Below, piece by piece: positions 5,946 to 13,406 of a stretch of 64,000 nt of DNA; position 1 is the first letter of the stretch; each line of letters starts with the position of its first letter. The stretch lies in assembly GCF_988242995.1 (NCBI RefSeq), contig NZ_OZ547043.1; one strand, 5' to 3'. The notes under the pieces were generated by a model. It worked only from the letters and a program-made list of their open reading frames with translations. It ran no database searches and had not been told where the DNA came from. Made by a program: the position numbers and the translations under genes.

Positions 5946-8749
<2,804 letters not shown>

Positions 8750-8900
8750 CACCTACCAACGCGCCGTTATTTCCTGACGGCGCAGTAAATTCCTGCCAAA
8801 TATCGACTCACGTCACATTTTTTTGATCACGATTTGGTCCCTCAAAATGTGAGACGCTTCGATCCTCTTTTTCTCCCGTTCACCTACTATACGCTTGAAG

Positions 8901-8924
8901 TTGTCCATGATTGTCCATAGACAA
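8901..8924 (+). promoter_or_regulatory. candidate operator upstream of the GntR-family regulator: direct repeat TTGTCCAT x2 and palindrome TTGTC-cata-GACAA
   Basis: Sequence ttgtccatga ttgtccatagacaa read directly at 8901-8924, 15-40 nt upstream of the regulator start. Confidence 0.3.
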
Positions 8925-8938
8925 CTGTAAATGTTCAG

Positions 8939-9694
8939 GTGCGCGCCATGAAATCATTAAGTAAGTCGTCACAAATACCGCTCTATCAACAAGTGGTGGA
9001 GTGGATAAGAGAAAGTATTTATACCGGGGATTTGGTGGAAGACGATCGCATTCCTTCGGAATACCAGATTATGGATATGCTGGAAGTGAGTCGGGGAACC
9101 GTTAAAAAAGCAGTCGCCCAACTGGTAAAAGAAGGCGTGTTGATTCAGGTCCAGGGGAAGGGAACATTTGTCAAAAAAGAGAACGTGGCATATCCGTTAG
9201 GTGAAGGATTATTGTCATTCGCGGAATCGCTGGAAAGCCAGAAAATACACTTTACCACTGAAGTTATTACGTCACGGATTGAACCGGCTAATCGTTATGT
9301 GGCAGAGAAATTAAGAATAACGCCCGGTCAGGATATTCTTTACCTTGAGCGTTTACGTTCAATTGGTGATGAAAAAGCGATGCTGATAGAGAACCGTATC
9401 AATATTGAGCTATGCCCCGGCATCGTGGAAATCGATTTTAATCAACACAATTTATTTCCAACAATAGAAAGTTTGTCGCAAAGAAAAATTCGTTACTCGG
9501 AAAGTCGCTATGCCGCGCGATTAATTGGTAATGAACGCGGTCATTTTTTAGATATCAGTGAAGATGCACCCGTTTTGCATCTGGAGCAGTTAGTCTTTTT
9601 CTCCCGAGAGTTACCCGTTGAGTTTGGCAACGTCTGGTTAAAAGGAAATAAATATTATCTGGGTACCGTGCTGCAACGGCGGGAATTGAGTTAA
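8939..9694 (+). CDS. GntR-family transcriptional regulator (N-terminal winged HTH, C-terminal effector-binding domain)
   Basis: 251-aa ORF; N-terminus has typical GntR HTH (SEYQIMDMLEVSRGTVKKAVAQLVKEGVL); start could be 8939 or 8948. Confidence 0.75.
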   Translation: MRAMKSLSKSSQIPLYQQVVEWIRESIYTGDLVEDDRIPSEYQIMDMLEVSRGTVKKAVAQLVKEGVLIQVQGKGTFVKKENVAYPLGEGLLSFAESLESQKIHFTTEVITSRIEPANRYVAEKLRITPGQDILYLERLRSIGDEKAMLIENRINIELCPGIVEIDFNQHNLFPTIESLSQRKIRYSESRYAARLIGNERGHFLDISEDAPVLHLEQLVFFSRELPVEFGNVWLKGNKYYLGTVLQRRELS

Positions 9695-9706: not shown

Positions 9707-10192
9707 ATGAGGAATAAAATGCAAGGCATACAGTTTCAGGAAAATTATATTCAACGACTTCCGGCAGGGTTAAGCGTTGAACAGATCATCCGTCAGTTAG
9801 CGCAACCGTTGGTTGCTGCTGAGCTGGTGGTCCCTGATTTTGCCGATCACGTACTGAAACGTGAGGCGACGTACCCAACAGGGCTGCCTACCGAACCGCC
9901 GTGCGTCGCTATTCCGCACACGGACCATAAACATGTCAGGCACAATGCAATTGCCGTCGGCATCCTGCCGGAACCGGTAGAGTTTGCCGATATGGGCGGC
10001 GATCCTGACCCCGTACCTGTCAGGGTGATTTTTTTGCTCGCCTTAAGCGAAAGTAATAAACAATTAAATGCCCTGGGCTGGATTATGGAGATGATTCAGG
10101 ATACGCCCTTTATGCGCGCCCTGCTTACGATGGAAACAACAGAAATACACACAGTAATCTTAAACAAAATGAAAGAACGAGGTGAAATATGA
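9707..10192 (+). CDS. PTS EIIA component, type 2 (galactitol/ascorbate-like)
   Basis: 161 aa; conserved phosphorylatable His context (VAIPHT); operon with EIIB/EIIC. Confidence 0.75.
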   Translation: MRNKMQGIQFQENYIQRLPAGLSVEQIIRQLAQPLVAAELVVPDFADHVLKREATYPTGLPTEPPCVAIPHTDHKHVRHNAIAVGILPEPVEFADMGGDPDPVPVRVIFLLALSESNKQLNALGWIMEMIQDTPFMRALLTMETTEIHTVILNKMKERGEI

Positions 10193-10470
10193 GTCAAACC
10201 ATTTTATTTGTCTGCGCCACGGGTATTGCCACATCCACGGCGGTAACAGAAAAAGTCATGGAATATTGTAAAGAGCACGGTCTTAACGTCAATTATTCCC
10301 AAACCAACGTTGCCTCTTTACCTGGAAATACTGACGGCGTAGCACTGGTAGTCTCAACGACTAAAGTGCCTTATGAACTCGACGTCCCGGTGGTTAACGG
10401 CTTGCCGATTATTACCGGTATTGGCGAAGAGAAAGTACTGGCGCAAATTGTTTCGATCCTTAAAAAGTAA
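10189..10470 (+). CDS. PTS EIIB component, galactitol family
   Basis: 93 aa; N-terminal active-site Cys motif (ILFVCATGIATS); 4-nt overlap with EIIA. Confidence 0.75.
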   Translation: MSQTILFVCATGIATSTAVTEKVMEYCKEHGLNVNYSQTNVASLPGNTDGVALVVSTTKVPYELDVPVVNGLPIITGIGEEKVLAQIVSILKK

Positions 10471-10546: not shown

Positions 10547-11905
10547 ATGAACGATATCGCGCATACCCTCTATAATATTGTGCAATATATATTGGGATTT
10601 GGTCCCACGGTAATGTTGCCGTTGGTGTTATTTATTCTTGCTCTCTTTTTTAAAGTAAAACCCGCTAAAGCCTTACGTTCGTCATTAACGGTCGGTATTG
10701 GTTTTGTCGGTATTTATGCCATTTTCGATATTCTTACCAGCAATGTCGGGCCAGCGGCCCAGGCGATGGTTGAACGCACCGGAATTAATTTACCGGTGGT
10801 GGATTTAGGCTGGCCGCCGCTTTCCGCTATTACATGGGGTTCGCCAATTGCCCCGTTTGTTATTCCCCTGACTATTCTGATTAACGTGGCGATGCTGGCG
10901 TTAAATAAAACCCGCACCGTTGACGTAGATATGTGGAACTACTGGCATTTTGCCCTTGCCGGTACGCTGGTTTATTACAGCACCGGCAGCCTGTTCTTTG
11001 GTTTGCTGGCAGCGGCGATTGCTGCGGTGGTAGTACTTAAACTCGCCGACTGGTCTGCGCCACTGGTACAAAAATACTTTGGCCTGGAAGGGATCTCTTT
11101 GCCGACGCTCTCTTCGGTGGTGTTCTTTCCGGTCGGTCTGTTGGTCGACAAAATCATCGACCATATCCCCGGCCTCAATCGTATTCATATCGATCCGGAA
11201 ACCGTACAGAAAAAGTTTGGCATATTCGGCGAACCGATGATGGTTGGTACTATTCTGGGCATTCTGCTCGGCGTAATTGCCGGATACGATTTCAAAAAAG
11301 TCTTGCTGCTTGGCATCAGCATTGGCGGTGTGATGTTCATCCTGCCACGCATGGTTCGCATTCTGATGGAAGGTTTATTACCGCTGTCTGAAGCCATTAA
11401 AAAGTATCTCAATGCCAAATACCCTGACCGTGACGATCTCTATATCGGCCTGGATATCGCCGTTGCCGTAGGTAACCCAGCGATTATCTCCACCGCCCTG
11501 CTGCTGACGCCAATCTCGGTCTTTATCGCGTTTGTCCTTCCGGGTAATGAAGTCCTGCCGCTTGGCGACCTTGCCAACCTGGCGGTAATGGCGTCGATGA
11601 TTGCTTTAGCCAGCCGTGGCAACATTTTCCGCACCGTTCTGGCGGCGATTCCGGTGATTATTGCCGATCTGTGGATTGCGACTAAAATCGCGCCGTTTAT
11701 TACCGGAATGGCGAAAGACGTTAATTTCAAATTTGCCGAAGGCTCCAGCGGCCAGGTCTCCAGTTTCCTTGATGGCGGTAACCCGTTCCGCTTCTGGCTG
11801 CTGGAAATCTTCAACGGCAATCTCATCGCCATTGGTCTGGTGCCGGTTATTGCCCTGGTACTGTATGGTATTTTCCGAATGACGCGGAGCACGGTTTATG
11901 CCTGA
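10547..11905 (+). CDS. PTS EIIC permease, galactitol (GatC-like) family
   Basis: Polytopic membrane protein of about 452 aa; start placed at ATG 10547 preceded by AAGAGG; ORF-track start 10517 is an in-frame extension. Confidence 0.75.
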   Translation: MNDIAHTLYNIVQYILGFGPTVMLPLVLFILALFFKVKPAKALRSSLTVGIGFVGIYAIFDILTSNVGPAAQAMVERTGINLPVVDLGWPPLSAITWGSPIAPFVIPLTILINVAMLALNKTRTVDVDMWNYWHFALAGTLVYYSTGSLFFGLLAAAIAAVVVLKLADWSAPLVQKYFGLEGISLPTLSSVVFFPVGLLVDKIIDHIPGLNRIHIDPETVQKKFGIFGEPMMVGTILGILLGVIAGYDFKKVLLLGISIGGVMFILPRMVRILMEGLLPLSEAIKKYLNAKYPDRDDLYIGLDIAVAVGNPAIISTALLLTPISVFIAFVLPGNEVLPLGDLANLAVMASMIALASRGNIFRTVLAAIPVIIADLWIATKIAPFITGMAKDVNFKFAEGSSGQVSSFLDGGNPFRFWLLEIFNGNLIAIGLVPVIALVLYGIFRMTRSTVYA

Positions 11906-13406
11906 TAACAGCGCAGCTATCGTTATCGATATTGGCACCACCAATTGCAAAGTCACCTGCTTTTCCTGCCTGGACGCAACGACGTTGGGCGCGCATAAAT
12001 TCGTGACGGCAAAACAGATCTCCCCACAGGGCAATGTCGATTTCGATATCGACGCCCTCTGGCAGGAGGTCCGCCAGGCGATAGCGCAACTGAACGCCGC
12101 TTCGCCGCTGCCAGTCAGGCGGATAAGCATTGCCAGTTTTGGCGAGTCAGGCGTGTTCCTTGACGAGCATGGCGAGATCCTGACGCCAATGCTGGCATGG
12201 TATGACCGTCGCGGTGAAGAGTATCTGGCTACACTTAGCGAGGCAGACAGTGCGGCACTTTATGACATTTGCGGGTTACCGCTGCACAGCAATTACTCTG
12301 CCTTCAAAATGCGTTGGTTGCTGGAACATTACCCACTGCGTAATCGCCGCGGCCTGCGTTGGCTACATGCGCCGGAAGTACTGCTCTGGCGGCTGACCGG
12401 CGAACAGCGCACGGATATCACCTTAGCCAGCCGCACGCTGTGTCTGGACGTGCGCAAAGGCGCATGGTCAGTGAAAGCGGCGGCGTTGTTACACGTTCCC
12501 TGTTCAGCATTTGCGCCATTGGTGCAGCCAGGCGAACACGCCGGATGGGTCAGCGAGTCGCTCTGCAAAACGCTTGGGTTCTCGCAACCGGTCAGCGTGA
12601 CGCTGGCCGGACATGACCATATGGTGGGTGCGCGAGCGTTGCAGATGATGCCGGGCGATATCCTTAACTCGACGGGGACCACAGAAGGTATTCTGCAACT
12701 GGATACACAACCGACGCTGGATGAACAGGCCAAACGTGACAAGCTGGCAAACGGCTGTTATTCGCTTGCAAACCAGTTCACCCTGTTTGCGTCGCTGCCC
12801 GTGGGCGGTTTCGCTCTGGAGTGGCTGCGTAACACGTTCCGGCTAACCGATGAGGAGATCGCCGCATCACTTACTCGCGGACATGCGGATTACCTGGCGG
12901 GGAACTGGTCGCTCGATGACATTCCCCTCTTTATTCCACATCTTCGCGGTTCGGGTTCGCCCTATAAAAATCGCCATACTCGTGGATTATTTTATGGGCT
13001 TGGCGATACGTTAAATATCGACATGTTAATTGCCAGCGTCTCACTGGGATTAACCATGGAATTTGCCAACTGCTTCGCCTGTTTTAATGTGCCTGGCACC
13101 AGCGCGTTAAAAGTGATAGGTCCGGCAACCCAAAATCCCCTTTGGCTGCAATTAAAAGCGGATATTTTACAGCGTCCGGTTGAAGCAATTGCATTTAACG
13201 AGGCGGTTTCTGTCGGAGCATTATTAACTGCCGCACCGGATATTCCACCGCCGCAAGTTACCATAGCCCAACGTTTGTTACCGAATCGGGCGAGATACCA
13301 TCAATTACAGCGTTATCAGCACAAATGGAAAAGCTGGTATCAGTTGAAATTACAGCAAGAAGGCGTGATGCCATTACACCATCGGGAGGAGCACTATGTT
13401 GAGTAA
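11898..13406 (+). CDS. FGGY-family carbohydrate kinase
   Basis: 502 aa; N-terminal AIVIDIGTTNCK actin-fold ATPase motif typical of FGGY kinases; overlaps EIIC end by 8 nt. Confidence 0.7.
   Translation: MPDNSAAIVIDIGTTNCKVTCFSCLDATTLGAHKFVTAKQISPQGNVDFDIDALWQEVRQAIAQLNAASPLPVRRISIASFGESGVFLDEHGEILTPMLAWYDRRGEEYLATLSEADSAALYDICGLPLHSNYSAFKMRWLLEHYPLRNRRGLRWLHAPEVLLWRLTGEQRTDITLASRTLCLDVRKGAWSVKAAALLHVPCSAFAPLVQPGEHAGWVSESLCKTLGFSQPVSVTLAGHDHMVGARALQMMPGDILNSTGTTEGILQLDTQPTLDEQAKRDKLANGCYSLANQFTLFASLPVGGFALEWLRNTFRLTDEEIAASLTRGHADYLAGNWSLDDIPLFIPHLRGSGSPYKNRHTRGLFYGLGDTLNIDMLIASVSLGLTMEFANCFACFNVPGTSALKVIGPATQNPLWLQLKADILQRPVEAIAFNEAVSVGALLTAAPDIPPPQVTIAQRLLPNRARYHQLQRYQHKWKSWYQLKLQQEGVMPLHHREEHYVE

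Follow-up and report, generated by a model that had tools for sequence, protein, structure and literature searches.

The general operator consensus of the GntR family of transcriptional regulators is NyGT-Nx-ACNy, and in most sites of the HutC subfamily x is 4, giving GTMTAKAC (PMC4494728). The usual mode of recognition among GntR/HutC proteins is one dimer on one GT-N4-AC palindrome. The closest described system is that of NagR (YvoA) and DasR, HutC-subfamily proteins that bind the dre site (PDB 4WWC, 4U0Y; PMC4333415). In NagR, Arg38 and Arg48 read both guanines of the TGGT half-site and the wing residue Gly69 reads the minor groove; the half-sites are separated by 6 nt for NagR, 5 nt for FadR and 6 or 8 nt for AraR (PMC4333415). 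Several members of the family use other arrangements. Direct repeats are the operators of FarR/MngR (unit TGTATTAWTT), NagQ and NanR, the SdhR palindrome has an additional symmetry, and weaker extra half-sites 7-12 nt from the palindrome centre are common, as for the groups FadR, HutC and YtrA (PMC4494728).

Here we analyse a site of this kind in a 64-kb stretch of an Escherichia-type chromosome, hereafter the window. Positions 8901-8924, just upstream of a gene for a GntR-family regulator, had been proposed from the DNA letters to be its autoregulatory operator. We find that the site is very probably the operator of this adjacent HutC-subfamily protein, through which it would repress its own sugar operon.

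Results

The site and its closest relatives

On inspection, 8901-8924 reads TTGTCCATGATTGTCCATAGACAA. The octamer TTGTCCAT starts at 8901 and again at 8911, i.e. with a 10-bp period, as claimed in the original prediction. The TTGTC-N4-GACAA dyad that was also claimed is present as TTGTC-CATA-GACAA within 8911-8924, TTGTCCATAGACAA, and is better given as a 14-bp palindrome in which 6 of the 7 pairs match, with C8916/A8919 as the sole mismatch. It is as close to the regulator start as had been said, lying 24-37 nt 5' of the ATG at 8948. The proposed likeness to GntR operators holds in part: TTGTCCATAGACAA matches NyGT-Nx-ACNy as an inverted repeat, but its GT-to-AC distance is 6 nt (GT-CCATAG-AC) and not the 4 nt typical of HutC sites.

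The site has in common with dre the HutC subfamily of the adjacent regulator, the inverted repeat and the GT...AC core. It differs in its half-site, TTGT where dre has TGGT with two guanines, and in the 6 nt that separate GT from AC, against 4 nt in dre. Furthermore, an extra phased half-site is conserved here, and distant relatives have up to 8 units. The separation of 6 or 8 nt between AraR half-sites offers a structural precedent for the 2-nt wider spacing of 8911-8924. AraR boxes are made of half-sites of the TTGTAC/TTGTCC type. The DNA-binding domain of AraR of Bacillus subtilis (PDB 4EGY) is similar to that of our regulator (E = 6.8e-12); however, the AraR effector domain is of the LacI type and not UTRA, and its boxes are paired at a distance for looping, whereas the array here is contiguous with a 10-bp period.

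The direct units recall FarR/MngR, NagQ and NanR, the exceptions in the family that act on direct repeats, and the FarR unit is likewise 10 nt long and begins with TGTA. SdhR combines direct and inverted half-sites, as 8901-8924 does. The unit sequences of all these systems differ from ours, however, and our regulator is not an ortholog of theirs; in contrast to FarR/MngR, NagQ and NanR, moreover, the direct repeats here coexist with a clear palindrome. Unit 1 (8901-8908), 10 nt from unit 2, resembles the extra boxes of Suvorova et al. 2015 (PMC4494728), except that here the extra box is conserved as well as the palindrome arms. A palindrome with a phased extra half-site is a known theme in the GntR family. 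What appears to be new, as far as sequence comparison can tell, is the definition of a motif for an uncharacterised operon, with an atypical GT-N6-AC spacing and half-sites phased at 10 bp. The coordinates of the features are collected in Table 1.

Table 1. Features of the predicted operator region and its operon (window positions, unless a locus is named) and operator arrays of the split clusters.
Feature	Position	Strand	Remarks
CRP-like site 1	8802..8817	+	ATCGActcacgTCACA; putative; degenerate here, 7/10 consensus positions
CRP-like site 2	8848..8863	+	TGTGAgacgctTCGAT; putative; 7/10 consensus positions
Predicted -10 hexamer	8885..8890	+	TACTAT (conserved TAnnAT); deduced from conservation
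Operator unit 1	8901..8910	+	TTGTCCATGA; extra direct half-site; most other genera read TTGTACATGA
Operator unit 2	8911..8920	+	TTGTCCATAG; palindrome left arm; top single unit in window, 13.9 bits
Inverted unit	8915..8924	-	TTGTCTATGG on minus strand; palindrome right arm, paired with unit 2
Shine-Dalgarno sequence of regulator gene	8936..8940	+	AGGTG
GntR-family, HutC-subfamily regulator (wHTH + UTRA)	8948..9694	+	first operon gene
PTS EIIA	9707..10192	+	PGAP start 12 nt further in, at 9719
PTS EIIB	10189..10470	+	
PTS EIIC, galactitol family	10547..11905	+	
FGGY-family sugar kinase	11898..13406	+	
HPr-family phosphocarrier protein	13396..13665	+	
Class II ketose-bisphosphate aldolase	13696..14547	+	last operon gene
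Split-cluster operator arrays	L055 3909-3932 and 8956-8980; L066 1900 and 6953; L067 1904 and 6954		

The operon downstream of the site

The island consists of seven genes on the + strand, preceded by nikA to nikE and nikR (8348-8749) and followed, after the aldolase gene, by the convergent yhhJ. The start codon taken for the regulator is the one that PGAP uses in E. coli genomes. The genes follow each other closely (those of the regulator and EIIA are 12 nt apart), and a scan for promoters and terminators inside the gene series returned only background-level matches, none of them convincing; we therefore read the seven genes as one operon. As the regulator gene comes first, the site should control the whole operon and not the regulator alone. 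Of the autoregulation originally proposed, control of the own gene would stand, but its scope seems too narrow, since the whole PTS, kinase and aldolase operon is expected under the site. Between the aldolase gene and yhhJ, an inverted repeat at 14595-14627 (CCGATGCGTA...TACGCATCGG) is likely a bidirectional terminator marking the end of the operon.

The promoter region of the island was found in 1637 of 5426 complete E. coli genomes, O157:H7 included, and the island is therefore accessory. K-12 carries rhsB at this position, and homology with the K-12 nikR-rhsB region stops exactly at the nikR stop codon (TAA here, TGA in K-12), which makes the whole 8750-8947 spacer island-type DNA. A GC-rich hairpin in this spacer, at about 8761-8786, may serve as the nikR terminator. 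We considered the vpe carbohydrate-permease operon of uropathogenic E. coli as a possible identity of the operon and rejected it, since vpe is described on an island with deoK and not beside nikR. In Salmonella enterica the orthologous cluster (locus L065, 1039-6003) adjoins uhpA, uhpB, uhpC and uhpT. Judging from these neighbouring genes, it is probably the island STM3779-STM3785, for which an aldolase, a regulator and a PTS of unknown specificity are described and which is silenced by H-NS (PMC3604774).

Occurrence of the element in the window

Taken alone, by window statistics, neither the dyad nor the octamer repeat is beyond chance. With up to 1 mismatch allowed, the 64 kb contain TTGTC-N4-GACAA a single time against 1.95 times expected, and 88 of 100 shuffles hold at least one such match; TTGTCCAT occurs 4 times against 2.4 expected. 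The composite tandem element, as opposed to the isolated dyad or repeat, is exceptional in the window. Indeed, when a matrix of the 10-bp unit was trained solely on distant loci (Gilliamella, Firmicutes and Coriobacteriaceae, with regulators at most 59% identical to ours), the tandem pair at 8901-8920 scored 24.4 bits and the runner-up in the window 11.6, and none of 200 window shuffles reached that score (mean 13.0, maximum 22.1). The same element does not recur elsewhere: the matrix scan found no second tandem operator pair in the 64 kb, and single units such as those at 19916 and 39453 score at shuffle level.

Conservation of the array

It is the comparison with other genomes that, at the level of sequence, makes 8901-8924 convincing. 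With an alignment of 26 homologues that share 52-100% identity with the regulator, we fetched 53 loci from one-genome-per-species contigs. They come from Escherichia, Citrobacter and many other Enterobacterales (regulators 66-90% identical), Gilliamella (58%), Enterococcus, Selenomonas, Centipeda, Anaeromonas and Sporolactobacillus (50-59%) and one Coriobacteriaceae genome (48%). The regulators of the fetched loci span 48-99% identity to ours and are accompanied in every locus by the same PTS, FGGY kinase and aldolase genes.

Of the 51 regions compared 5' of the regulator, only one lacks an array of TTGTNNAT half-sites phased at 10 bp; the unit consensus of the arrays is TTGT[A/C][C/T]AT[A/G]G and the 10-bp period is strict. 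When both strands of the whole 5-15 kb of each locus were scored with cross-clade matrices, 46 of 48 loci, Clostridia included, had their top tandem pair at most 130 nt 5' of the regulator and on the strand of this gene. The two exceptions are Sporolactobacillus, which has a weak array, and Pantoea sp. BAV 3049 (locus L021, upstream of 4001), whose regulator is 72% identical to ours and which is the sole locus with no recognisable array.

The layout of the half-sites depends on the lineage, being direct-direct-inverted in Enterobacterales and all-direct in Gilliamella and Enterococcus. In the closest Enterobacterales group two direct units are followed by the inverted half-site, and Salmonella and five other genera, including Winslowiella and Izhakiella-like genomes, have the perfect palindrome TTGTCTATAGACAA. 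In Gilliamella and several Firmicutes the array consists of three or four direct units, and species of the Enterococcus avium group carry strong units every 10 or 20 bp across about 80 bp. Unit 1 is TTGTACAT nearly everywhere, and TTGTCCAT is found there only in Escherichia and Citrobacter amalonaticus. The exact duplication of TTGTCCAT thus looks, from this comparison, like a lineage-specific accident, and the conserved feature appears to be the TTGTNNAT half-sites in 10-bp phase.

At closer range, 8895-8926 is invariant among the 12 Escherichia and Citrobacter sequences aligned, whereas the upstream spacer varies; the 201-bp spacer differs by up to 4.5% between Escherichia lineages. Conservation is not specific to the dyad within the closest enterobacterial group, where it covers everything from the operator to the ATG. 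Further downstream, ATGTTCAGGTGCGC (window 8931-8960) is nearly invariant in 16 genera, which exceeds what a ribosome-binding site alone requires. In a Gilliamella MAG we noticed an extra site, TTCTATATGGTTGTACAAGG (17.8 bits; locus L037, 2707-2726), which lies some 1.3 kb upstream of the regulator in a different intergenic region and may belong to a further member of the regulon.

A second type of enterobacterial cluster is split, with the order EIIA-EIIB-EIIC-kinase-dehydrogenase, then a gap, then regulator-aldolase-HPr. For these clusters longer flanks were fetched from Klebsiella, Erwinia billingiae and Yersinia intermedia, and in each case only two strong sites were present in the 14-18 kb, one 5' of EIIA (e.g. 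GGTTGAACATAGTTGTACATAGACAAGT and CACTTGCACATGGTTGTATATAGACAACT) and one 5' of the regulator, with 20-28 bits against less than 10 for all other positions. Two sites that mark exactly both transcription units are the pattern expected of a pathway-specific operator. Clusters of this second type (Klebsiella, Erwinia, Yersinia) have two genes for Zn-dependent dehydrogenases, and the gene content suggests a polyol substrate there and a ketose for the E. coli type, which lacks the dehydrogenase.

That 8901-8924 should be nothing but a functionless repeat and palindrome assembled by chance is hardly conceivable. The dyad and octamer counts would allow it as long as the window is considered alone, but the conservation of the array across phyla, its presence at both promoters of the split clusters and the shuffle test all speak against it.

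Position relative to the predicted promoter

A scan of 8700-9000 found no consensus sigma-70 promoter and no intrinsic terminator, and we therefore derived the promoter from conservation. The hexamer TAnnAT is conserved 10 nt before the array in 16 enterobacterial genera, with no recognisable -35 element beside it. If it is the -10 element, transcription would start near 8897 and the operator would extend from about +5 to +28, a placement that depends on predicted promoters. In Firmicutes the arrays begin 4-5 nt after near-consensus promoters, such as TTTACA-17-TACAAT and TTTACT-17-TATAAT, which puts them on the transcription start. A repressor would be expected to bind at such a place, past the predicted -10 and within the 5' untranslated region.

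The predicted promoter has a poor -35 element and would need some activator, and since some GntR proteins do activate, the regulator might bind 8901-8924 as an activator or in a dual role. We hold this to be improbable. The site lies past the -10 and over the start point of the predicted promoters in every lineage, the near-consensus promoters of Firmicutes need no activator, and those sugar regulators of the HutC type that have been characterised, NagR for instance, repress until sugar phosphates release them (PMC4333415).

CRP is a candidate activator of the promoter. The centre of CRP-like site 2, at 8855.5, corresponds to -41.5 relative to a start at 8897, as in a class II arrangement, which like the start itself is a prediction; only its left half, AAAnTGTGA, is conserved. 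In most other genera, e.g. Salmonella, Klebsiella oxytoca NBRC, Cedecea, Phytobacter and Trabulsiella, CRP-like site 1 (TGTGA-N6-TCACA) agrees with the consensus at 9-10 of 10 positions; its left half was lost in Escherichia and C. amalonaticus. With a start at 8897 it would sit at -87.5, out of phase. Its degeneration may leave the E. coli island under weaker catabolite control. The island junction was considered as the cause of the lost half-site and rejected, as K-12 homology ends at the nikR stop, 50 nt further upstream. Between the two CRP-like sites, a TGATC box (8825-8829) is conserved in 15 of 16 enterobacterial genera; we found no explanation for it.

Since the site is predicted to be transcribed, it could also act as RNA, that is, as a 5' untranslated hairpin (GUUGUCC...GACAAC) controlling mRNA stability or translation. 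Folding of the leader does pair unit 1 with the inverted arm, with -16.1 kcal/mol for 8897-8960 (z = -2.1) and -11.3 kcal/mol for 8897-8947 (z = -1.2). Nevertheless, we consider a role as RNA very improbable. The hairpin requires the Escherichia-specific A-to-C change in unit 1 and cannot form in arrays of direct repeats alone. The orthologous leaders share no common structure: z is +0.55 in Salmonella, +1.18 and -0.37 in Klebsiella, -0.5 in Gilliamella and -0.6 and -1.55 in Enterococcus, the Selenomonas leader (z = -2.74) being the sole strongly negative one. Furthermore, the leader has no match in Rfam, and a period of strictly 10 bp is characteristic of duplex DNA rather than of an RNA fold. 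The predicted fold contains a second small hairpin, in which the regulator gene has its Shine-Dalgarno sequence and start codon paired.

The regulator and its fit to the half-site

The regulator carries the Pfam domains GntR (3.8e-16) and UTRA (1.3e-26); it reaches none of the NCBIfam equivalog cut-offs and is therefore uncharacterised. Its effector domain is PDB 3hfi, a structural-genomics entry. Its relatives in the PDB are NagR, DasR and PhnF, and the nearest characterised one is NagR/YvoA (E = 2.6e-21). Our literature search found no paper on the regulator and no binding or expression data, and both its orthologous group and the motif are absent from the site tables of Suvorova et al. 2015 (PMC4494728).

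Among the orthologues R49 and G70, the equivalents of NagR Arg48 and Gly69, are invariant. No orthologue has Arg at the position of NagR Arg38: the closest group carries Tyr or Phe, and outside it the residue is mostly Asn, with Lys, His or Gln in three orthologues. AraR likewise keeps just one of the two arginines of NagR (PMC4333415). The replacement of Arg38 with retention of the Arg48 equivalent is in keeping with TTGT, a half-site that has only one guanine. Between E. coli and Enterococcus there is hardly any change in the recognition helix VSRGTVKKA and the wing QGKGTFV, in agreement with a DNA motif that is conserved across phyla.

The CRP-like sites and the conserved TGATC box indicate that other factors act on the spacer, and the array might accordingly be bound not by the adjacent GntR protein but by a different transcription factor, e.g. 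a global regulator. This appears unlikely to us, for several reasons. Proteobacteria, Firmicutes and Actinobacteria have few global regulators in common, and the motif accompanies the regulator in all three; it agrees with the conserved recognition helix and coincides exactly with the transcription units of the cluster; and its TnGT/ACnA core is typical of GntR-family sites (PMC4494728).

Discussion

That 8901-8924 is the operator of the adjacent GntR regulator, as originally predicted, gains strong comparative support from the conservation of the array across phyla, from the split clusters, from its invariance in Escherichia and from the contact residues of the protein. The motif, its conservation, its position relative to the genes and its fit to the contact residues are computational results; the model that we infer from them extends to the start site, the role of CRP, repression as opposed to activation, the stoichiometry of binding and the inducer.

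In this model the operator comprises three half-sites, TTGT(A/C)(C/T)AT, placed one helical turn apart, with direct copies at 8901 and 8911 and one inverted copy. Without inducer, the dimeric regulator would bind 8901-8924, the upstream unit being possibly taken by a second dimer or by an extra DNA-binding domain. The promoter would be weak and probably CRP-dependent, and the bound regulator, just past the -10 and over the first 30 or so transcribed bases, would block RNA polymerase. A single site could thereby provide both autoregulation and repression of the whole operon (regulator, EIIA, EIIB, EIIC, FGGY kinase, HPr and aldolase). Induction would occur when a phosphorylated sugar intermediate binds at the UTRA domain and thereby shifts the DNA-binding domains out of place. 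NagR works in this way: it represses an operon that serves a sugar imported by a PTS, and sugar phosphates at UTRA release it (PMC4333415).

The phased arrays of the distant relatives hint at cooperative binding of several dimers. From this we put forward, tentatively and with considerable doubt, an unusual mode of action for a HutC protein, in which the DNA-binding domains would sit on single TTGTNNAT half-sites one helical turn apart, in either orientation, and one or more dimers would polymerise cooperatively along one face of the DNA. In contrast to the single dimer on a single palindrome of the usual mode, such binding would range from the three half-sites of E. coli to the 4-8 units over a 40-80 bp leader in Gilliamella and Enterococcus.

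In conclusion, the GntR family would gain a well-supported case of GT-N6-AC spacing combined with phased extra half-sites. For the organism, the pair of operator and regulator would offer a handle on the substrate of an accessory sugar operon: a crystal structure of the effector domain already exists, and a reporter of the promoter could reveal the inducers.
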